The notes beneath the pieces were generated by a model. That model did no database searches and was not told where the DNA came from. It saw nothing but the letters and a program-made list of their open reading frames with translations. DNA of 64,000 bases from Octopus sinensis (Eukaryota), in assembly GCF_006345805.1 (NCBI RefSeq), contig NC_043006.1, positions 100,440,001 through 100,504,000 on the forward strand. The letters are read 5' to 3'. Positions 10,985-61,257 of this stretch are shown here, piece after piece. Position numbers and translations under genes: made by a program. Position 1 is the first letter of the stretch; every line of letters starts with the position of its first letter.

Positions 10985-11563
10985 AGGTGGCGAGCTAGCG
11001 GAAATGTTAGGACGCCGGGCGAAATGTTTAGCGGTATTTCGTGTGCCGTTACGTTCTGAGTTCAAATTCTGCCGAGGTCGACTTTGCCTTTCATCCTTTT
11101 GGGGTCGATTAAATAAGTACCAGTTACGCACTGTGGTCGATGTAATCGACTTAAACCGTTTGATCTCCTTGTTTGTCCCCTCTGTGTTTAGCCCCTTGCG
11201 GGTAGTAAATAAATAGGCATTTCGTCTGCCGCTACGTTCTGAATTCAAATTCCGCCGAGGTCGACTTTGCCTTTCATCTTTTCGGGGTCAATTAAATAAG
11301 TACCAGTTGCGTACTGGGGTCGATGTAATCGGCTTAATCCCTTTGTCTGTCCTTGTTTGTCCATGCTATGTTTAGCTCCTTGTGGGTAATAAGGAAATAG
11401 GTATTTCGTCTCTCTTTAAGTTCTTAGTTCAAATTCGGCCACGGTCGACATTGCCTTTCATCATTTCGGGGTCGATAAATTAAGTACCAGTAGCGTACTG
11501 GGGTTGATCTACTCGGCTGACCGCCTCCGCAAGAATTCCGGGCCTTGTACCTAGAGTAGAAAA
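10985..11563 (+). mobile_element. SINE with three tandem ~184-bp internal units
   Basis: Head GGTGGCGAGCTAGCGGAAATGTTAG. Units start at ~11035, 11218 and 11402, each with a (G)AGTTCAAATTC-like box and GCCTTTCATC..GGGGTC..AAGTACCAG. Confidence 0.8.
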
Positions 11564-23911: not shown

Positions 23912-24410
23912 TTCATGTCTTCTGGCATGTATCTCTAGAATGTCATTTAGATTTCAGCGGGGAATCATTTCATGTATACTTCAGTAACAAAATAGTTGTG
24001 TCGTGGATTATTTTTCTCGTTTTGGGTGTCTTACCTCCTTTCCTTTTAATGTTCGTTTTATGTCACTACCCTTTTGTATATGATAGTTTCATTTTTCTGA
24101 ATTCTGTATTATTTGGTCGTAGACTTTGTCTCCTATTTGTTTTCATTTTTGCAAAGGAATCTTTAGAGTGGACTGAAAATATTGACTGATTACAGAAAAA
24201 TAACTTCATAACATTATTTAGCAAAAGAACGTGCTATATATATATATATATATATAAAATAAATATAAGAGAGTGGTCACTATATGGCTCACTCTAGCAC
24301 CAGTTAATCCAAAAGGTTTCAACCACAAAAATACATGTTTCCCATGAAAGTCAGTACGATTGTTAGCTCACACGGACAGGGCAAACAAAAAATAACAAAA
24401 ATACAGATTA

Positions 24411-24492
24411 TTTTGGGACAATTGTTTCGCTATTAATGAATTAAATGTAATTTTACTTACAAAAAAATCCACTTGTAGCTCCTCAGCCAAAA
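24411..24492 (-). ncRNA. Type I hammerhead ribozyme (left arm copy)
   Basis: Reverse complement of 24942-25023. Confidence 0.8.
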
Positions 24493-24941
24493 CTATCTGG
24501 ATGAAATCCACTCAATCACACGCCAGATTTTACCATAACGATAAATACACGTGTGGTTCAATTGATTACATCCGACGTTATAATTCAAATGCCCCAACTA
24601 ACAGCGCGCCAAATTTTCACGGAAAACAAATACAGCATTTAGAAATAAATGCAGCATAATTATAATTAATTAATAAGGGTGAGAGAATTAGATACTAATT
24701 TAATAGTATATCTATTCTACACCAAGTGGCCTAGTGCTCCGAGAAACCTGGATTATTATAATATTTTATAATATATTATAATATTTTTACAAAATAAATA
24801 TAAGAGAACCACACGTGTATTTATCGTTATGGTAAAATCTGGCGTGTGAATTATAACGTCGGATGTAATCAATTGAACCACACGTGTAATTATCGTTATG
24901 GTAAAATCTGGCGTGTGATTGAGTGGATTTCATCCAGATAG

Positions 24942-25023
24942 TTTTGGCTGAGGAGCTACAAGTGGATTTTTTTGTAAGTAAAATTACATTTAATTCATTA
25001 ATAGCGAAACAATTGTCCCAAAA
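24942..25023 (+). ncRNA. Type I hammerhead ribozyme (right arm copy)
   Basis: UUUUGG-CUGAGGA-GCUA..GUGGAUU..UGUAA..UUACA..AAUUCAU..UAGC-GAAAC-AAUU-GUC-CCAAAA. 6-bp stem I, palindromic stem III. Confidence 0.85.
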
Positions 25024-25300
25024 TAATCTGTATTTTTGTTATTTTTTATTTGCCCTGTCCGTGTGAGCTAACAATCGTACTGACTTTCATGGGAAACATG
25101 TATTTTTGTGATTGAAACCTTTTGGATTAACTGGTGCTACAGTGAGCCATATAGTGACCACTCTCTTATATTTATTTTGTAAAAATATTATAATATATTA
25201 TAAAAATATTATAATAATCCAGGTTTCTCGGAGCACTAGGCCACTTGGTGTAGAATAGATATACTATTAAATTAGTATCTAATTCTCTCACCCTTATTAA

Positions 25301-25389
<89 letters not shown>

Positions 25390-27343: not shown

Positions 27344-27953
27344 TATATTATTTTTGTTGCTGAAAAAGGCGAAACTGCAGTCTAAGATGAACAGAGTTAG
27401 TAAAAGTTTTTATCTTCATTTCACTAAATTTATCAAGCTTCTGTGTTTCTAGTACATACTTCGCCTTTAATGTACTTATATATGAATAATATATGGCCTG
27501 TGCTAGAAACACCAGCGATAATAATTAATTTTATTTTATCGCATTTTGAATTTGTTTACATATTTCTCGATAAATTTTGAGCGTTAGACTATATACCAGA
27601 AATCCCTAGTTTGTCGGGTTCGTTCTGCGTCTGCGCAGTGATCTGATTAGTTAGAAAGAGCAAATTAGTAGACGCACATGTGTCTATCGAGTTGCGCTTC
27701 ATAATAACAGGAATCTTACTGAAGAGCCTACCTGAGTAAATAAATATTATTTTTGTTGCTGAAAAAGGCGAAACTGCAGTCTAAGATGAACAGAGTTAGT
27801 AAAAGTTTTTATCTTCATTTCACTAAATTTATCAAGCTTCTGTGTTTCTAGTACAAACTTCGCCTTTAATGTACTTATATATGAATAATATATGGCCTGT
27901 GCTAGAAACTCCAGCGATAATAATTAATTTTATTTTATCGCCTTTTGAATTTG

Positions 27954-27955
<2 letters not shown>
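27344..27955 (+). mobile_element. Retrozyme/pLTR-like insertion: 399-bp monomer x~1.5 between (TA)n tracts
   Basis: 27345-27556 is repeated at 27744-27955 (offset 399). Confidence 0.8.
27713..27787 (+). ncRNA. Type I hammerhead ribozyme
   Basis: AUCUUA-CUGAAGA-GCCU..AGGC-GAAAC-UGCA-GUC-UAAGAU. Confidence 0.85.
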
Positions 27956-28010
<55 letters not shown>

Positions 28011-28712: not shown

Positions 28713-29201
28713 AAATATGGGGGTTTAAGGTGGTCTAAACAGTTAGGTAGGGTAGGCAAGTGCTGTAACGGATTACCAAGGCTCCAAGGCTATAGCGGAG
28801 ACGGTAGTTATGGAGCCATTGTAGATTTCCGATATAGCGGATGTATAATTGTTAAAGAGAACAACAAAAGTTTAGGCAAGACAAGCATCTCACATCACAT
28901 ACATCATTATTATTGGGAACAATTCAAGGTCTTACACCTGTTTCTGGGATATCCCAGAGTATAGGATGTTCCGTCATCGGATATAAATAGGGTAAATGAG
29001 AAGGGTATCTCATTGTAAGAGTTTACATTTTTCCCAGTAGTAATAATGTATATGACTTAAGATGTGTGTCTTGCCTTAAAATTCGTTGTCCTCTTTAACA
29101 AGTATATATGAGTGTGTGTGGATGTGTGTGTACATATATATGTATATGTATATATATTTATATATGTGTGTGTATGTATATGTATATACATATATATATA
29201 T

Positions 29202-32200
29202 ATACTAAGCAATAAGGGTTCAGCAACGAATTGCCTTACCACATACCGAATTTAGAAATAGCAGTCAAAGGGTTATAGCTATTTCTTCTACTAAAAAGGG
29301 AGATCTCAGTAAAAACAGCAATTGGAAGGCTGACACAAACAGGTAAGAGAGAATGAATTAACCGCAATCTATCAAACATTTTTAAAGTTATCCACGGACG
29401 TACGTTCGAAATCAAGTTTTAGGAAAGCATAAGAATTAAAATATTAAATATTAAATAATTCTATCTTACCGAAACTTCTTTTCTCTTCAGCGTGGATACT
29501 ATAATCATAAATGATTATATATTGAATTTTGAGATACTAGGAGGTACCAACTCAACTCAGTATCAGAGCGAGCTAGAATCCTCAACTAGTATCACCGAAT
29601 TCAAATTTGTGAATGAAACGATTGTGTCAACAGCCCCTTCTCACCCGCGTGTAGCCAAAACAAGATGCTGTAGTCATCTACTGAGATAAAATATGGTTAT
29701 CCGTAATAATGAAGGGTGAAATTAATTAATTTGGAATAATTATCAATTACACCAAGTAGTCTTCGGCATGTAAAAGCCTCATTGAGGAAAATTTAAGTAA
29801 TACTAAGCAATAAGGGTTCAGCAACGAATTGCCTTACCACATACCGAATTTAGAAATAGCAGTCAAAGGTTATAGCTATTTCTTCTACTAAAAAGGGAGA
29901 TCTCAGTAAAAACAGCAATTGGAAGGCTGACACAAACAGGTAAGAGAGAATGAATTAACCGCAATCTATCAAACATTTTTAAAGTTATCCACGGACGTAC
30001 GTTTCGAAATCAAGTTTTAGGAAAGCATAAGAATTAAAATATTAAATATTAAATAATTCTATCTTACCGAAACTTCTTTTCTCTTCAGCGTGGAATACTA
30101 TAATCATAAATGATTATATATTGAATTTTGAGATACTAGGAGGTACCAACTCAACTCAGTATCAGAGCGAGCTAGAATCCTCAACTAGTATCACCGAATT
30201 CAAATTTGTGAATGAAACGATTGTGTCAACAGCCCCTTCTCACCCGCGTGTAGCCAAAACAAGATGCTGTAGTCATCTACTGAGATAAAATGGTTATCCG
30301 TAATAATGAAGGGTGAAATTAATTAATTTGGAATAATTATCAATTACACCAAGTAGTCTTCGGCATGTAAAAGCCTCATTTGAGGAAAATTTAAGTAATA
30401 CTAAGCAATAAGGGTTCAGCAACGAATTGCCTTACCACATACCGAATTTAGAAATAGCAGTCAAAGGGTTATAGCTATTCTTCTACTAAAAAGGGAGATC
30501 TCAGTAAAAACAGCAATTGGAAGGCTGACACAAACAGGTAAGAGAGAATGAATTAACCGCAATCTATCAAACATTTTTAAGTTATCCACGGACGTACGTT
30601 TCGAAATCAAGTTTTAGGAAAGCATAAGAATTAAAATATTAAATATTAAATAATTCTATCTTACCGAAACTTCTTTTCTCTTCAGCGTGGAATACTATAA
30701 TCATAAATGATTATATATTGAATTTTGAGATACTAGAGGTACCAACTCACTCAGTATCAGAGCGAGCTAGAATCCTCAACTAGTATCACCGAATTCAAAT
30801 TTGTGAATGAAACGATTGTGTCAACAGCCCCTTCTCACCCGCGTGTAGCCAAAACAAGATGCTGTAGTCATCTACTGAGATAAAATATGGTTATCCGTAA
30901 TAATGAAGGGTGAAATTAATTAATTTGGAATAATTATCAATTACACCAAGTAGTCTTCGGCATGTAAAAGCCTCATTTGAGGAAAATTTAAGTAATACTA
31001 AGCAATAAGGGTTCAGCAACGAATTGCCTTACCACATACCGAATTTAGAAATAGCAGTCAAAGGGTTATAGCTATTTCTTCTACTAAAAAGGGAGATCTC
31101 AGTAAAAACAGCAATTGGAAGGCTGACACAACAGGTAAGAGAGAATGAATTAACCGCAATCTATCAAACATTTTTAAAGTTATCCACGGACGTACGTTTC
31201 GAAATCAAGTTTTAGGAAAGCATAAGAATTAAAATATTAAATATTAAATAATTCTATCTTACCGAAACTTCTTTTCTCTTCAGCGTGGAATACTATAATC
31301 ATAATGATTATATATTGAATTTTGAGATACTAGGAGGTACCAACTCAACTCAGTATCAGAGCGAGCTAGAATCCTCAACTAGTATCACCGAATTCAAATT
31401 TGTGAATGAAACGATTGTGTCAACAGCCCCTTCTCACCCGCGTGTAGCCAAAACAAGATGCTGTAGTCATCTACTGAGATAAAATATGGTTATCCGTAAT
31501 AATGAAGGTGAAATTAATTAATTTGGAATAATTATCAATTACACCAGTAGTCTTCGGCATGTAAAAGCCTCATTTGAGGAAAATTTAAGTAATACTAAGC
31601 AATAAGGGTTCAGCAACGAATTGCCTTACCACATACCGAATTTAGAAATAGCAGTCAAAGGGTATAGCTATTTCTTCTACTAAAAAGGAGATCTCAGTAA
31701 AAACAGCAATTGGAAGGCTGACACAAACAGGTAAGAGAGAATGAATTAACCGCAATCTATCAAACATTTTTAAAGTTATCCACGGACGTACGTTTCGAAA
31801 TCAAGTTTTAGGAAAGCATAAGAATTAAAATATTAAATATTAATAATTCTATCTTACCGAAACTTCTTTTCTCTTCAGCGTGGAATACTATAATCATAAA
31901 TGATTATATATTGAATTTTGAGATACTAGGAGGTACCAACTCAACTCAGTATCAGAGCGAGCTAGAATCCTCAACTAGTATCACCGAATTCAAATTTGTG
32001 AATGAACGATTGTGTCAACAGCCCCTTCTCACCGCGTGTAGCCAAAACAAGATGCTGTAGTCATCTACTGAGATAAAATATGGTTATCCGTAATAATGAA
32101 GGGTGAAATTAATTAATTTGGAATAATTATCAATTACACCAAGTAGTCTTCGGCATGTAAAAGCCTCATTTGAGGAAAATTAAGTAATACTAAGCAATAA

Positions 32201-33083
32201 GGGTTCAGCAACGAATTGCCTTACCACATACCGAATTTAGAAATAGCAGTCAAAGGGTTATAGCTATTTCTTCTACTAAAAAGGGAGATCTCAGTAAAAA
32301 CAGCAATTGGAAGGCTGACACAAACAGGTAAGAGAGAATGAATTAACCGCAATCTATCAAACATTTTTAAAGTTATCCACGGACGTACGTTTCGAAATCA
32401 AGTTTTAGGAAAGCATAAGAATTAAAATATTAAATATTAATAATTCTATCTTACCGAAACTTCTTTTCTCTTCAGCGTGGAATACTATAATCATAAATGA
32501 TTATATATTGAATTTTGAGATACTAGGAGGTACCAACTCAACTCAGTATCAGAGCGAGCTAGAATCCTCAACTAGTATCACCGAATTCAAATTTGTGAAT
32601 GAACGATTGTGTCAACAGCCCCTTCTCACCCGCGTGTAGCCAAAACAAGATGCTGTAGTCATCTACTGAGATAAAATATGGTTATCCGTAATAATGAAGG
32701 GTGAAATTAATTAATTTGGAATAATTATCAATTACACCAAGTAGTCTTCGGCATGTAAAAGCCTCATTTGAGGAAAATTTAAGTAATACTAAGCAATAAG
32801 GGTTCAGCAACGAATTGCCTTACCACATACCGAATTTAGAATAGCAGTCAAAGGGTTATAGCTATTTCTTCTACAAAAAGGGAGATCTCAGTAAAAACAG
32901 CAATTGGAAGGCTGACACAAACAGGTAAGAGAGAATGAATTAACCGCAATCTATCAAACATTTTTAAAGTTATCCACGGACGTACGTTTCGAAATCAAGT
33001 TTTAGGAAAGCATAAGAATTAAAATATTAAATATTAAATAATTCTATCTTACCGAAACTTCTTTTCTCTTCAGCGTGGAATAC
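29202..33083 (-). repeat. Tandem array of a ~601-bp hammerhead-containing monomer, ~6.5 copies (RNA sense = minus)
   Basis: ATACTAAGC recurs at 29202, 29800, 30398, 30995, 31592, 32187 and 32786. Copies differ essentially only by 1-nt deletions. Seven ribozyme copies (e.g. 29391-29496, 29988-30094). Confidence 0.95.
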
Positions 33084-35051
33084 CCTTTGACTGCTATTTC
33101 TAAATTCGGTATGTGGTAAGGCAATTCGTTGCTGAACCCTTATTGCTTAGTATTACTTAAATTTTCCTCAAATGAGGCTTTTACATGCCGAAGACTACTT
33201 GGTGTAATTGATAATTATTCCAAATTAATTAATTTCACCCTTCATTATTACGGATAACCATATTTTATCTCAGTAGATGACTACAGCATCTTGTTTTGGC
33301 TACACGCGGGTGAGAAGGGGCTGTTGACACAATCGTTTCATTCACAAATTTGAATTCGGTGATACTAGTTGAGGATTCTAGCTCGCTCTGATACTGAGTT
33401 GAGTTGGTACCTCCTAGTATCTCAAAATTCAATATATAATCATTTATGATTATAGTATTCCACGCTGAAGAGAAAAGAAGTTTCGGTAAGATAGAATTAT
33501 TTAATATTTAATATTTTAATTCTTATGCTTTCCTAAAACTTGATTTCGAAACGTACGTCCGTGGATAACTTTAAAAATGTTTGATAGATTGCGGTTAATT
33601 CATTCTCTCTTACCTGTTTGTGTCAGCCTTCCAATTGCTGTTTTTACTGAGATCTCCCTTTTTAGTAGAAGAAATAGCTATAACCCTTTGACTGCTATTT
33701 CTAAATTCGGTATGTGGTAAGGCAATTCGTTGCTGAACCCTTATTGCTTAGTATTACTTAAATTTTCCTCAAATGAGGCTTTTACATGCCGAAGACTACT
33801 TGGTGTAATTGATAATTATTCCAAATTAATTAATTTCACCCTTCATTATTACGGATAACCATATTTTATCTCAGTAGATGACTACAGCATCTTGTTTTGG
33901 CTACACGCGGGTGAGAAGGGGCTGTTGACACAATCGTTTCATTCACAAATTTGAATTCGGTGATACTAGTTGAGGATTCTAGCTCGCTCTGATACTGAGT
34001 TGAGTTGGTACCTCCTAGTATCTCAAAATTCAATATATAATCATTTATGATTATAGTATTCCACGCTGAAGAGAAAAGAAGTTTCGGTAAGATAGAATTA
34101 TTTAATATTTAATATTTTAATTCTTATGCTTTCCTAAAACTTGATTTCGAAACGTACGTCCGTGGATAACTTTAAAAATGTTTGATAGATTGCGGTTAAT
34201 TCATTCTCTCTTACCTGTTTGTGTCAGCCTTCCAATTGCTGTTTTTACTGAGATCTCCCTTTTTAGTAGAAGAAATAGCTATAACCCTTTGACTGCTATT
34301 TCTAAATTCGGTATGTGGTAAGGCAATTCGTTGCTGAACCCTTATTGCTTAGTATTACTTAAATTTTCCTCAAATGAGGCTTTTACATGCCGAAGACTAC
34401 TTGGTGTAATTGATAATTATTCCAAATTAATTAATTTCACCCTTCATTATTACGGATAACCATATTTTATCTCAGTAGATGACTACAGCATCTTGTTTTG
34501 GCTACACGCGGGTGAGAAGGGGCTGTTGACACAATCGTTTCATTCACAATTTGAATTCGGTGATACTAGTTGAGGATTCTAGCTCGCTCTGATACTGAGT
34601 TGAGTTGGTACCTCCTAGTATCTCAAAATTCAATATATAATCATTTATGATTATAGTATTCCACGCTGAAGAGAAAAGAAGTTTCGGTAAGATAGAATTA
34701 TTTAATATTTAATATTTTAATTCTTATGCTTTCCTAAAACTTGATTTCGAAACGTACGTCCGTGGATAACTTTAAAAATGTTTGATAGATTGCGGTTAAT
34801 TCATTCTCTCTTACCTGTTTGTGTCAGCCTTCCAATTGCTGTTTTTACTGAGATCTCCCTTTTTAGTAGAAGAAATAGCTATAACCCTTTGACTGCTATT
34901 TCTAAATTCGGTATGTGGTAAGGCAATTCGTTGCTGAACCCTTATTGCTTAGTATTACTTAAATTTTCCTCAAATGAGGCTTTTACATGCCGAAGACTAC
35001 TTGGTGTAATTGATAATTATTCCAAATTAATTAATTTCACCCTTCATTATT

Positions 35052-35058
<7 letters not shown>
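33082..35058 (+). repeat. Inverted arm of the same array, ~3.3 copies (RNA sense = plus)
   Basis: ACCCTTTGACTG recurs at 33082, 33683, 34284 and 34884. Ends in (TA)n at 35058. Confidence 0.95.
33459..33565 (+). ncRNA. Type I hammerhead ribozyme with ~76-nt stem II (also at 34060-34166 and 34660-34766; seven more on minus in the left arm)
   Basis: UCCACG-CUGAAGA-GAAA..AAGUUU..AGAAUUA..UAAUUCU..AAACUU..UUUC-GAAAC-GUAC-GUC-CGUGGA. Confidence 0.88.
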
Positions 35059-35094
<36 letters not shown>

Positions 35095-35098
<4 letters not shown>

Positions 35099-35325
35099 AT
35101 CCAAACAAGAAAACACAGAAAAAAAGAGAAAAAAAACACAGCAACGCAGGACGTGGAACAATTAAAGTATTATTGACGCTCAGGAAAGAAGGGAAGGAGG
35201 GCTTAACGTTTCGAGCGGAGCTCTTCGTCGGAAACAAGGAGAAGGAAAAATCCCAAGAAGGGAAGACAGAGGAAAAAATATTTGAGCTGGTGGTGCTCAA
35301 GAGATCACATGTTGAAAGAATCATA
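35095..35325 (-). mobile_element. Penelope-like pLTR fragment with minimal hammerhead-like motif (35204-35236)
   Basis: Minus strand CCGACGA-A-GAGC-UCC-GCUC-GAAAC-GUU-A. Flanked by (TA)n. Confidence 0.45.
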
Positions 35326-35486
35326 TATGTATATTAAATTAGAGATAAAACCACTATTAGGCAAATCAAACAGTGAAAAACATAAGCCAATACATAAAAT
35401 TAATTTTAGAATATAAAAGTTTAAAAATTAAAAAACTATTTAAATAATTGAAACTTATAAATTTTAAATATATATATACAAATATA

Positions 35487-44745: not shown

Positions 44746-44761
44746 ATATATACATATATTA

Positions 44762-44897
44762 TCAATAATAATAAAGGGTAAAATCAACTAATCAATTGAT
44801 AATGAATAATTTTACCAAGTAGTTCGGTATGTTAAAAGAACCGTTATCGCTAAACTTATACAAAAATTCTATAATTATGCTCATAATTATAGAACTT
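44762..44897 (-). mobile_element. Short 3'-terminal fragment related to the 601-bp array monomer
   Basis: TAATAATAAAGGGTAAAAT..ACCAAGTAGTTCGGTATGTTAAAAG versus array TAATAATGAAGGGTGAAAT..ACCAAGTAGTCTTCGGCATGTAAAAG. Confidence 0.6.
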
Positions 44898-49568: not shown

Positions 49569-51189
49569 TGCTACCGAGACATCGAGCATGCTTCGAGAAC
49601 TTTACGGCGACGAGGCAATGGACCGTACGCAATGTTTCGAGTGACACAGGAGCTTTAAAAGCGGAAGGAGATCCCTGGAAGATGATTATCGATCTGGAAG
49701 ACCTGCCACAAGCGTCACCCCCGACAAATAATCCTTCGAAGGCAGCCCGATAATCGCGAGTTCGATTATTGCGTTTGAGAGAGGACATTCAACGAAAGCG
49801 ACCGTATCTTATTTCTTTACTGCCCACAAGGGGCTAAACACAGAGGGGACAAACAAGGACAGACAAAGGGATTAAGTCGATTACATCGACCCCAGTGTGT
49901 AACTGGTACTTAATTTATCGACTCCAAAAGGATGAAAGGCAAAGTCGACCTCGGCGGAATTTGAACTCAGAACGTAGCGGCAGACGAAATACCTATTTCT
50001 TTACTACTCACAAGGGGCTAAACACAGAGGGGACAAACAAGGACAGACAAAGGGATTAAGTCGATTACATCGACCCCAGTGTGTAACTGGTACTTAATTT
50101 ATCGACTCCAAAAGGATGAAAGGCAAAGTCGACCTCGGCGGAATTTGAACTCAGAACGTCGCGGCAGACGAAATACCTATTTCTTTACTACTCACAAGGG
50201 GCTAAACACAGAGGGGACAAACAAGGACAGACAAAGGGATTAAGTCGATTACATCGACCCCAGTGTGTAACTGGTACTTAATTTATCGACTCCAAAAGGA
50301 TGAAAGGCAAAGTCGACCTCGGCGGAATTTGAACTCAAAACGTAGCGGCAGACGAAATACCTATTTCTTTACTACTCACAAGGGGCTAAACACAGAGGGG
50401 ACAAACAAGGACAGACAAAGGGATTAAGTCGATTACATCGACCCCAGTGTGTAACTGGTACTTAATTTATCGACTCCAAAAGGATGAAAGGCAAAGTCGA
50501 CCTTGGCGGAATTTGAACTCAGAACGTAACGGCAGACGAAATACCTATTTCTTTACTACTCACAAGGGGCTAAACACAGAGGGGACAAACAAGGACAGAC
50601 AAAGGGATTAAGTCGATTACATCGACCCCAGTGTGTAACTGGTACTTAATTTATCGACTCCAAAAGGATGAAAGGCAAAGTCGACCTTGGCGGAATTTGA
50701 ACTCAGAACGTAACGGCAGACGAAATACGGCTACGCATTTCGCCCGGCGTGCTAACGTATCTGCCAGCTCGCCACCGAATACGCGAAAGCAACCGTATCT
50801 GTGGAGCGCGAAGAATTGGATTCTTCACGATGACAATAAACCCTCTCACCGAGCTCTCCTCACTCGTGAGGTTCTTGCCAAAACCAACATGGCATCGTTT
50901 TCATACCCACCCTATTCACCAGATTTAGCTCCAGCGGATCTCCATCACTTCCCCAAGGTTAAAAGGCAGCTCAAACGTCGCCGTTTTAGCATCGTTGTCG
51001 AAATCAAGGGCAAATCGCAGAAAGTTCTCGACTCTCTTACAGAAGATGACCTCTAGGCCGGCTTCCAAATGTGGCAGGACCGTTGCATTGCTGCGCGTGG
51101 TGAATATTTCGAAGAAGATTTAAAACTTGGAAAAACGAGTTACTTTTTATTAAATCTAACTGGTTCGGGAACCTTTTGATACCAGCTCG
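49569..51189 (+). pseudogene. Decayed mariner (DD34D) transposase, internally deleted and interrupted by a SINE multimer
   Basis: 5' piece translates MLRELYGDEAMDRTQCFE*HRSFKSGRRSLEDDYRSGRP (HTH region). 3' piece [41 protein letters not shown]. 3' TIR GGAACCTTTTGATACCAGCTCG|TA. Confidence 0.85.
49810..50776 (-). mobile_element. SINE with five tandem 184-bp units and one head
   Basis: Units start at 49810, 49994, 50178, 50362 and 50546. Head at 50729-50776. 17-bp flanking duplication CGAAAGC(G/A)ACCGTATCT at 49793 and 50784. Confidence 0.9.
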
Positions 51190-53247: not shown

Positions 53248-54426
53248 GTTTCTTTATTAGCCACACAGGGCTGCACACAGATAGAACAGATACAAGGTAG
53301 AGCTTTTCTTTTGAAGGTATTAAAAAAAAAAAAAAAAAAAAAAAGGAAGGGGGAGGTTCGATCAAAAGGGATCGTAAAAGAGAGAAAGAGGACAAAAATA
53401 AGGGGGTTAAAAAAAAAATTAAAAAAAAAAAAAGGGGGGAGAGAAAAAAAAATGATCAATAGGGATCGTTATCACAGAAAGTCAATATGAAGTGTAAAGG
53501 GGAGGACAGGTGAGGTTTACCGTGGAAAGAAAAGCCTGCGGAAAAGACCACGGTAACCTCGGTCAATGAAGTCACATTTTATATTTCTTTTTTTTTTTTT
53601 TTTTTTTTTTTTTTGCAAATAAGCAACTCTCTGTTTTCGATTTCTGGGTCATGGACTATGCTCAAGGTGGCTTCGTCATTCATACGCCATTCTTGCTACA
53701 TTCACCCATCTTTTTTTAAAACATTCGCTAGACAAAACTTGCCTCTCTACTCTCACTTTCCTTTTCAAGTGGTACTTGAAGAAGTTGATGAGAGATTGAC
53801 CAGAGAGGAAAGTGTTTGTCTCCAATCCTTTCAGACGCGTCCACCAGATACATTCTTTCGCCATAGCCACAAGAATGATGAAAATAGCTCTTCCTTCCCG
53901 TTTGAAGGAAGGAGGCGTGACAATATTGACGATAGACACAGCTGATAAACCGACTCGTCCCACACGTGACAGCAGTTGTTCGACATAAGCCACAGGTCGG
54001 AAATTGTTGGACACTGAACGAGTGCGTGCAGAACGGGTTCGTCGCTCTGACCGCATCTCGGGCAGGTCGGCCCCGTGTTTCTCGAGCCGTGTCTGTAGAG
54101 CTTATCCGAACGGGTAGCGCTTCTCGGTAGCACTGCCAGGCCAGGGATCTCTGGAAGTTGTCCATGGGCCCTGGCCCGAAAGTCGTCCGAACAGGCGGGT
54201 CAGGTACTCCTCGTCGACGTCCAGGTTCGCCCCGAGCTCGTCGTCGTACCTCCCCTCCACTAAACCCCTATAGAATGCTTTGGTTGTGTTGAAGTCACTT
54301 AAGGTCGACCCAGGACGGCAGAGTTGCTTGAGAGCAACGCGACACTCGCGGTGCCATTCGCCCTTCCTCGGCCTCTTTTTGATCCACGACTGCAGTTCGG
54401 TCATGGAGACGAGCTGCGGGAAAGCG
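53248..54426 (-). mobile_element. Tx1/L1-like LINE 3' end, copy 3 (ORF2 C-terminal zinc-binding region, frameshifted)
   Basis: Fragments ..RSLAWQCYREALPVR..CPRCGQSDEPVLHALVQCPTISDLW match the zf-RVT-like CxxC..E...H....C motif. Both ends in (GATA)n. Confidence 0.75.
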
Positions 54427-59679: not shown

Positions 59680-61257
59680 AGTTTTATTTTTATAGCGTGC
59701 TTTCACTTCACTACCGAGCGCAGCTCTGTGTGCCTTGGGTATGTGCTGTGATTTGTTGTGATGCTCTGATGGTTATTGTATGGAAAGTGTTCTGCGTAGG
59801 ATGTGTGCAGTGCCTAGTAGTGCAATTTTCTGTATGTTATATGTGTTTGTAAGTCCTGGTGTTTTTGTTATGTATTTGTCTGAATATTTTTTTATCATGC
59901 CTAATGCACCTACTATGATAGGAATTGTTTCTGTTTCCAGATTCCACATTCTAGTTACCTCTATTTCCAGGTCTTTGTATTTTGAGAGTTTCTCCATTTC
60001 TTTTAGAGACACGTTGTCATCTGCCGGTATTGATACATCAATTAGAAAGCATTTTTTTTCTTCATGATCTCTGACAATTATATCTGGTCTGTTGGCCTTA
60101 ATTTCTCTATCTGTGTGTATCGGCATATCCCAGAGTATGGTGCTTTCTCGTTTTCTGTGTCCTTTTCTGGTGTGTGCCTATACCATCTTTTTTCTGTTGT
60201 TATTCCATAATGTTGGCATAGCTTCCAATGTATGTAGGTTCCAACTCTGTCATGTCTGTGAATATATTCCTTCTTAGCCAGGACTGGGCAGCTAGAGATA
60301 ATATGATTTATTGTTTCTTGTCCATCTCCACATATTCTGCAGTTACTTGTAATATTTCTTTTCATTACATGTTTTTGGTAATTTCTGGTGGGGAAACTTT
60401 GGTCTTGTGCTGCAATTAAAAACCCCTCTGTCTCTGCTTTGAGTCCTGAGCTTCTCAACCATTGCTGGGATTTTTCTTTGTCTATTTCTTTTGCGTTTAG
60501 TTTAGTCCAGTATTTACCATGAAGCGGCTTTTCTTGCCATCGTTTTATCATGCTTCGTTGCTGTTCTATTTTTAGTTTGGATTTCATTTGTTTTATAGCT
60601 TTTGTTGTTTCTTCATCTTCTTCTTCTTCATGTTTATTAGGTTGTATGATTTCTTGTTTGTATTTGTCAGCTTCCTTAAATACTGAGAACAGTTTTTTGT
60701 TTTGCTCGTGTTTTGCCGCTATCTGGATCAGTTTTCCTTCCTTCTGAAGTAGATATTTTGCAGTCCTATGGTGGTTATTTTATAGTAGTTTTCCAGCTGT
60801 ATAAGGCCTCTACCACCTTCTATACGTTGTATATATAGTCTTTCTATGTCAGATTTTGGGTGATGCATCCTAGATCCTGTCAGTATTTTTCTTGTTTTCC
60901 TATCTATTTTGGTCAGTTCATTTCGTGTCCAGTTAAGGATATTGTAGCTGTAACTTATAACTGGGACAGCTAAAGTGTTGATCCCTATTATCTTGTTTTT
61001 AGCATTGAGCTCTGTTTTTAGTATTGATCTAACTCGTCTATAATATTCTTTTTTTATTTTTTATTTCATTTGTGTGTGTTGTGTCTTATCTAGTTCATGG
61101 ATTCCTAAGTATTTGTAAGTTTGGCTTTGGTCTAATTCTTTTATTTCATTGGTTTTATCTAGTGTGATGTTGCTACTCTTAACTAGTTTTCCTCTTTTCA
61201 GGGTTACTTTGGCGCATTTTTCTAATCCAAATTTCATATCTATTTCTTTGGTAAATC

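Follow-up and report, generated by a model that had tools for sequence, protein, structure and literature searches.

The window analysed here is a 64,000-nucleotide (nt) stretch of the Octopus sinensis genome (NC_043006.1, forward-strand positions 100,440,001 to 100,504,000; coordinates below count from its first nucleotide). It holds an array made of two inverted arms of a 601-nt repeat, each unit bearing a predicted hammerhead ribozyme, which overlap by 2 nt and are flanked on both sides by (TA)n. This array is one young, ordinary member of a large non-coding family of non-LTR retrozymes (LTR, long terminal repeat). A preliminary description of the window had counted about 6.5 head-to-tail and about 3.3 inverted copies between (TA)n tracts, and our measurements agree: the left arm (29202-33083, minus strand, 3,882 nt) comprises 6.5 monomers, the right arm (33082-35058, plus strand, 1,977 nt) comprises 3.3, and the two halves of the (TA)n target occupy 29134-29204 and 35056-35094. 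Since the hammerhead strand is minus in the left arm and plus in the right arm, the arms face outward and meet 5'-to-5', at an inversion junction of two 5'-truncated arms with 2-nt microhomology (33082-33083). Counting phase from the predicted hammerhead cut, the left arm has its RNA-sense 3' end at phase 195, referred to here as start site 1, and its 5' end at phase 497; the right arm has its 5' end at phase 124 and its 3' end at phase 298, referred to as start site 2. Inside a plus-strand unit, these sites fall at 33748-33760 (site 1, phase 189-201, mostly 195) and 33849-33869 (site 2, phase 290-310, mostly 298 and about 300-305). One unit-length monomer, from cut to cut, spans 33560-34160 on the plus strand and corresponds to a predicted circle of 601 nt. 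Compared with the 601-nt reference, the window units show no mismatches and 0-6 small gaps per alignment.

The longest stop-free frame in a monomer dimer has 80 codons, in keeping with the earlier view that no credible open reading frame (ORF) is present, and the perfect head-to-tail joints of the 601-nt units exclude an intervening ORF. Pfam matches were obtained for three of 136 window frames searched (136 of 139 were submitted), all of them to unrelated transposon fragments at least 15 kb away. No Penelope-type domain was found among these 136 frames, and with it no reverse transcriptase (RT) plus GIY-YIG ORF of the kind that marks an autonomous Penelope-like element; nor did a coding partner lie beside the relatives examined. 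The possibility, raised at the outset, that the monomer is simply the terminal repeat of an adjacent coding Penelope element therefore did not hold. The monomer is tandem, multicopy and non-coding, with a GC content of about 34%, that is, within the limit of 50% for non-LTR retrozymes, and its earlier identification as such an element stands at the sequence level. Its description as giant or unusually long does not: published retrozyme monomers range from 51 to 972 bp, with a mean of 650 bp in ray-finned fish (10.64898/2026.07.22.740005), those of metazoan non-LTR retrozymes being given as 150-450 bp in PMC7229834, and the family is large and ordinary. Predicted folds of the hammerhead strand are strongly self-paired, both as a linear (z -6.8) and as a circular molecule (z -6.7; 25 shuffles), compared with z -2.7 for the opposite strand.

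As the preliminary description stated, there are ten type I hammerheads, one per monomer; nine rather than ten of them are intact. First, three lie on the plus strand, namely at 33459-33565, with a 6-bp stem I, an extended stem II of about 80 nt, a 2-bp stem III with a palindromic loop and a predicted cut after 33559, at 34060-34166 (intact, predicted cut after 34160) and at 34660-34766 (intact, predicted cut after 34760). Second, the minus strand carries intact copies at 32973-33079, 31183-31289, 30585-30691 and 29988-30094, copies with an intact core at 32376-32481 and 31779-31884, and one at 29391-29496 that lacks an A of GAAA, probably owing to a homopolymer consensus error. Rfam at gathering thresholds gave no match in the window. 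Hammerhead_1 matches weakly (21.6 bits, E 0.015, gathering 34), the score being low because of a 72-nt insertion in stem II; the profile check proposed earlier thus recovers the fold at a score under threshold, with all core positions and the pairings of the 6-bp stem I, stem II and the 2-bp stem III in the alignment. The cut previously predicted after GUC at 33559 agrees in position with this alignment. The 22-nt 3' core of the hammerhead has 1,209 exact copies genome-wide and its reversed control has 0, which argues against chance. The catalytic fold is predicted at 1.1 kcal/mol above the minimum, and predicted stem III energies are +2.4 kcal/mol as a hairpin and -9.8 kcal/mol as a duplex of two copies. 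Given a stem III of only 2 bp with a palindromic loop, a layout described for dimer-activated hammerheads in PMC4209133, cleavage would probably proceed best in dimers.

Array ends and shared variants

To place the window array within its family, we compared it with 29 others readable from the matches listed by a genome search with the monomer, in which the 30 best of 1,401 candidates yielded 243 matches. These 30 arrays reach 14.6 units, are spread over many contigs and diverge by 0.23% from the majority sequence; across their 164 full units, hammerhead core and stem positions show a single substitution in total. Contigs from four out of four sequencing runs examined (of 24; four studies) contain the full monomer and its head-to-tail joint, which attests presence rather than expression. 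Three of these runs are guessed to be RNA, and the joint, also found in the fourth, is expected from tandem DNA too and says nothing of strand, level or circularity. Contigs from runs under four organism labels contain the monomer sequence or parts of it; no RNA run was listed among those containing it, which counts neither for nor against expression.

The arrays comprise 47 arm segments, and with the two inner ends of one array (L032) dropped, as it is split by an insertion, 46 3' ends and 46 5' ends could be compared. Of the 46 RNA-sense 3' ends, 45 lie in the phase windows 189-201 and 290-310, which together make up 6.8% of the unit, and one lies at 273; all 46 abut (TA)n. In contrast, 5' ends are uniform in phase (Kolmogorov-Smirnov p 0.63), all 46 of them being more than 10 nt away from the cut. 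Sixteen of the 30 arrays are inverted, and every one pairs an arm at site 1 with an arm at or near site 2 (at 273 in one case); among the uninverted arrays, 13 of 14 end at site 1. Inversion junctions show overlaps of 0-8 nt or short insertions. The preliminary description was right about a retrozyme array with an inversion, and its rolling-circle origin is the most likely route; it missed the two fixed start sites and their pairing across that inversion, which point to a Penelope-type enzyme. The insertion that splits L032, of 264 nt (L032:9546-9809) within a 14-unit array, has phases 282-293 on both sides, like a 12-bp target duplication.

With 5' truncation, an inverted copy, a tail at one end and a microsatellite target, the arrays have the marks of Penelope-type insertion; a tail, an inverted 5'-truncated copy and a (TA)n bias are described for Penelope elements in PMC8557442. 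Any target-site duplication longer than 4 bp is masked by the (TA)n on both sides of the array. Work in vitro on the anole Penelope element showed that its genomic tail is set by a pair of neighbouring internal start sites, each open to use from either of the nicked strands (PMC11167929). As that tail lies between two internal start sites, the inversions may well be what priming from both DNA ends normally yields.

Sixteen variant positions are fixed within arrays. Variants are present in at least 75% of covered units in 23 of the 30 arrays, and in all covered units for 22 of these. Both arms agree in the six inverted arrays that could be tested (marker covered on both arms; 6/6), including for markers private to one array. 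The window array itself carries a private variant, absent from the other 29, in all eight covered units across both arms. Such array-wide sharing is expected if a single monomer circle is copied repeatedly. Minority variants recur between arrays in only one of 43 cases, a weak test because many such variants are probably consensus errors. The family is young enough for a two-site reaction to be read from the genome, with nucleotide-exact start sites, stops at random, inversions that pair the sites and a single set of variants in each array.

The fixed changes have an uneven spectrum, as 12 of 15 that could be polarised (position 324 could not, and is left out) are A>G or T>C, against five of 40 singletons (Fisher p 5e-6), the singletons being probably for the most part consensus errors. 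Predicted pairs are kept by 11 of the 16, judged by the most likely partner. A>G and U>C are also common among polymerase errors. We treat the spectrum as unexplained, with polymerase error, selection on pairing and editing all as candidates; editing as the source was not adopted, given the error-prone singleton comparison, the pairs often kept and the similarity to polymerase errors.

Sister families and candidate Penelope partners

The design of the element is common to several sister families. Family B (unit of 559-567 nt), family C and further relatives have their own type I hammerheads and share with the window family only the region from about +100 to +300 after the cut. This region corresponds in the window to a structured core (33655-33870, plus strand), 65-80% identical among families and with covarying stems, that holds both start sites; we predict that it is the region bound by the enzyme. 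In an alignment of nine core sequences, 92.5% of cells pair, six of 33 pairs are changed on both sides, and none of 500 shuffles reaches as high; this is supportive and not a probability, since the window sequence supplied the structure and the nine are related to one another. The hammerhead is kept across the sister families even though stem I pairs have changed. Ends again concentrate at equivalent positions, namely nine at 192-207, 20 at 283-295 and one at 354 in family B, and 13 at 287-299, one at 195 and two at 162 in family C; these counts are not independent, because some loci overlap and the queries stopped at site 2. No linked ORF was found at the loci examined when sister families C, F and G were followed outward.

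The window holds further elements of related kinds. A fragment of a sister retrozyme family at 44757-44877, 74-76% like families A and C, ends in (TA)n at the equivalent of site 2. An inverted hammerhead element with TA-rich flanks (24235-25309) has a predicted cut near 25017 and its right end about 290 nt later; its hammerhead resembles the Hydra H2 repeats described below, it contains a motif like start site 2, and a copy 89-97% identical lies in L086. Finally, a small retrozyme-like family is present at 27345-27963, where a 399-nt unit is repeated in tandem about 1.5 times with (TA)n on both sides and a type I hammerhead lies near 27719.

Regarding enzymes, the genome contains a young Neptune-like Penelope family with a 781-codon RT plus GIY-YIG frame (labelled from motifs, by eye) and several families of the Hydra clade, with frames of up to 947 codons (L156-L175). 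The latter were assigned without a tree, from diagnostic motifs read by eye following PMC8557442. L172 shows all of these motifs, that is, RWK, DKT, a CxCX5C linker, and a C-terminal endonuclease without CCHH and with CxxC and CxH around E and N; L157 shows RW, DKT, CxxC and CxH, with no clear linker. Hydra repeats have long-loop type I hammerheads, lie in (TA)n and have two end sites downstream of the cut. In those of group H1 the ends lie either 46-68 or 204-219 nt downstream of the cut, and L157, L161, L162 and L165 have one of each, divided between their two arms; in group H2 they fall 37-44 nt, and once 154 nt, after it. On account of these hammerheads, this target and these paired end sites, the Hydra anatomy matches the arrays best.

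Some observations on these elements stand on their own. The two-site tail of the Hydra families is about 155 nt long, compared with 30-40 bp in print (PMC8557442), and the places displayed in the supplement of that source have Octopus rows for Naiads only. In L084-L087, of the Neptune-like family, a 479-codon frame overlaps the 781-codon frame, and a strict pattern gave no hammerhead in the output shown. The single strong match to the monomer beside a Hydra ORF, in L169, was set aside as a separate inverted insertion of a sister family, parted from the ORF by (TA)n. Dozens of distinct long-loop type I hammerheads were met by chance in TA-rich loci (L031-L175), which suggests a very large census that falls under Rfam thresholds.

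Origin of the arrays

We consider it probable that the arrays arise by rolling-circle, two-site target-primed reverse transcription of a ligated monomer into (TA)n, by a Penelope-type and probably Hydra-clade enzyme. A rolling-circle origin had been put forward earlier, and would be the most likely route given the array-wide shared variants and ends unrelated to the cut. First, an array would be transcribed, and the hammerheads would cut the transcript into 601-nt units, probably best as dimers. Second, a host ligase would close the units to circles, as in other retrozymes. Third, the enzyme would bind the structured core and nick both (TA)n strands, and each DNA end would prime synthesis at one of the two positions where array ends are observed, some 195 or 300 nt beyond the cut. 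Lastly, synthesis would stop at random, and joining of the products by microhomology would yield the outward-facing inverted arrays seen, or plain arrays if one product persists. Copying of an RNA circle by a Penelope enzyme has been proposed for animal retrozymes, though not demonstrated (PMC7229834; 10.64898/2026.07.22.740005), and both partner and mechanism are stated as unresolved in these two sources.

The element itself is ordinary within its genome. If this origin is correct, satellite-like arrays can arise in a single step, and an enzyme writing about 9 kb from a circle would be of interest to retrotransposon engineering. Rolling-circle target-primed reverse transcription is testable with defined RNA, enzyme and target, and the candidate Hydra enzymes with long frames are found in the same genome.

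Several points weigh against this proposal. The 30 arrays are the best-scoring of the 1,401 candidates, which biases them towards young, full-length copies, and the end windows were drawn after inspection of the data, so that the binomial p of 1e-51 for 3'-end clustering is descriptive only. Two arrays are mixed: L043 is a mosaic, with variants in six of ten and five of nine units, and L034 carries its variant in 12 of 15 units. Such mixtures fit one circle only if assembly polishing with reads of other copies, or template switching, also played a part. A long uncut transcript of a uniform parent would likewise be expected to give uniform arrays. As for the ribozyme, eight of nine predicted Xenopus retrozymes did not cleave in vitro (10.64898/2026.07.22.740005), and uncut RNA was the main substrate of the anole enzyme (PMC11167929). 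As for the enzyme, no terminal repeat like the monomer was found in 32 GIY-YIG loci (mostly Neptune-like), 20 Hydra H1 and 10 H2 loci, and pairwise scores against 32 hammerhead regions gave z mostly below 2, under a crude shuffle control with mostly negative z. Because no sampled Penelope repeat resembles the monomer, it is geometry that points to the partner, and Naiad and Neptune elements, including cephalopod Naiads, also favour (TA)n (PMC8557442). Among Penelope clades, Hydra as the partner therefore has about an even chance. As a separate observation, no array but L043 (1979-7984) is mosaic for the two variants in question, which L055 and L056 carry as fixed; template switching, a mixed parent or polishing may be the cause.

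These points bear most directly on an alternative that we regard as unlikely but worth serious attention, namely, Penelope-type insertion at the two start sites in which the template is a long linear RNA, transcribed from a parent array and left uncut, with a hammerhead that is weak or incidental. It accounts equally well for ends, inversions and targets, the anole enzyme inserted in vitro with no need of hammerhead cleavage (PMC11167929), a stem III hairpin is unfavourable on its own at +2.4 kcal/mol, and the mosaic of L043 fits the copying of a mixed parent. However, new variants fixed over up to 13 units require a single-monomer bottleneck, and linear copying with 5' truncation would shorten arrays in every generation, yet arrays of 13-14.6 units exist. 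The near absence of minority variants common to two arrays (1/43) speaks to the same effect, weak as that test is, and the hammerhead is kept across sister families with changed stem I pairs.

It is improbable that one or two units were inserted and then multiplied as DNA, through unequal crossover or slippage, to give the arrays. Satellite DNA grown by unequal crossover has ends at arbitrary phase and forms large localised blocks; these arrays, being short, dispersed and with 45 of 46 3' ends at two sites, do not belong there. DNA-level amplification is the route favoured in 10.64898/2026.07.22.740005, and it would likewise homogenise units. Against it stand the great youth of the arrays, at 0.23% divergence from the majority sequence, and their scatter over many contigs; in several inverted arrays each arm contains multiple units, the arms have private variants in common, and no block-wise duplication of interior variants was seen in the 16 arrays viewed unit by unit.

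We find it somewhat harder still to credit that the 601-nt circle is an endogenous viroid-like replicon, copied RNA-to-RNA in both polarities, edited by ADAR and then written into (TA)n by a two-primer Penelope enzyme. Editing on both polarities would explain the 12 of 15 fixed changes that are A>G or U>C and, if true, single edited circles would have been written as up to about 15 tandem copies. Very improbable is a further reading, whereby an autonomous Penelope element yet to be found has the monomer as its terminal repeat and the arrays are its truncated remnants: the hammerhead type, tail and target are those of Hydra terminal repeats, and the Penelope survey was partial, but none of the 30 arrays runs into coding sequence, and the sister families examined are likewise non-coding monomers. 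An assembly artefact, either a fold-back chimera or an over-expanded repeat, can practically be dismissed, for although most differences between units are homopolymer-type indels of the sort common in long-read consensus, the arms are not mirror images, their flanks differ, 16 independent inversions follow one two-site rule, and the head-to-tail joint recurs in contigs of all four runs examined, from four studies.

Related systems and neighbouring features

Like metazoan non-LTR retrozymes (PMC7229834; 10.64898/2026.07.22.740005), newt satellite 2, and mussel and coral repeats, the window family consists of tandem non-coding units with one type I hammerhead each; it also shares with them a GC content of about 34%, strong predicted self-pairing, Penelope elements in the genome and a size within 51-972 bp. 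It differs in a stem II extended by about 72 nt, and the activity of its hammerhead is a prediction. It is also young and dispersed; its two start sites are exact to the nucleotide and roughly half of its arrays are inverted, features that do not appear in the portions of those sources available to us. Unlike Xenopus retrozyme families, for which there are 21 Penelope matches, the monomer has no terminal-repeat homology to the 62 Penelope loci sampled. A full-text literature search, with most subscription journals outside its reach, returned no report of cephalopod retrozymes or of retrozyme end mapping.

Among Penelope-like elements, those of the Hydra clade (PMC8557442) share the (TA)n target, a canonical hammerhead, an inverted 5'-truncated copy and alternative ends downstream of the hammerhead; the arrays, in contrast, have no ORF and no detectable similarity to sampled Hydra repeats, and their tail is about 105 nt, versus about 155 nt in H1 of this genome and the 30-40 bp of that source. 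The Poseidon element PAc of anole (PMC11167929) likewise initiates at two internal sites downstream of the hammerhead, in agreement with its genomic ends, and has an AT-rich target, although PAc is autonomous, was assayed on linear RNA and has these sites within its ORF. Non-autonomous Chlamys elements such as MRC1 (PMC8557442) are similar in being non-coding, mobilised by Penelope and inserted as multicopy head-to-tail arrays.

Plant LTR retrozymes and hammerhead viroids are also hammerhead-processed, self-paired RNA circles of similar size, the circle being predicted in our case. No DNA form is known for viroids. In plant retrozymes the hammerheads are of type III and sit in LTRs, the target duplications are 4 bp long and the partner is a Gypsy element (10.64898/2026.07.22.740005), and identity with them is ruled out by the type I topology and tandem layout.

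The array has a repeat directly on either side. On the left lies a TA-flanked relic with an internal inversion (28714-29130), which resembles the hammerhead-bearing end of a degraded Hydra-type element in L088. On the right lies a common repeat (35095-35460), probably a Penelope terminal fragment, with a minimal hammerhead on the minus strand near 35236. Elsewhere in the window, tandem arrays of a 184-nt unit, probably a repeat like a short interspersed element, occupy 11033-11518 (2.7 copies) and 49810-50728 (5.0 copies), and transposon fragments, one DDE_3-like frame and two zf-RVT-like frames, are found at 50574-51053, 53834-54199 and 60081-60779.

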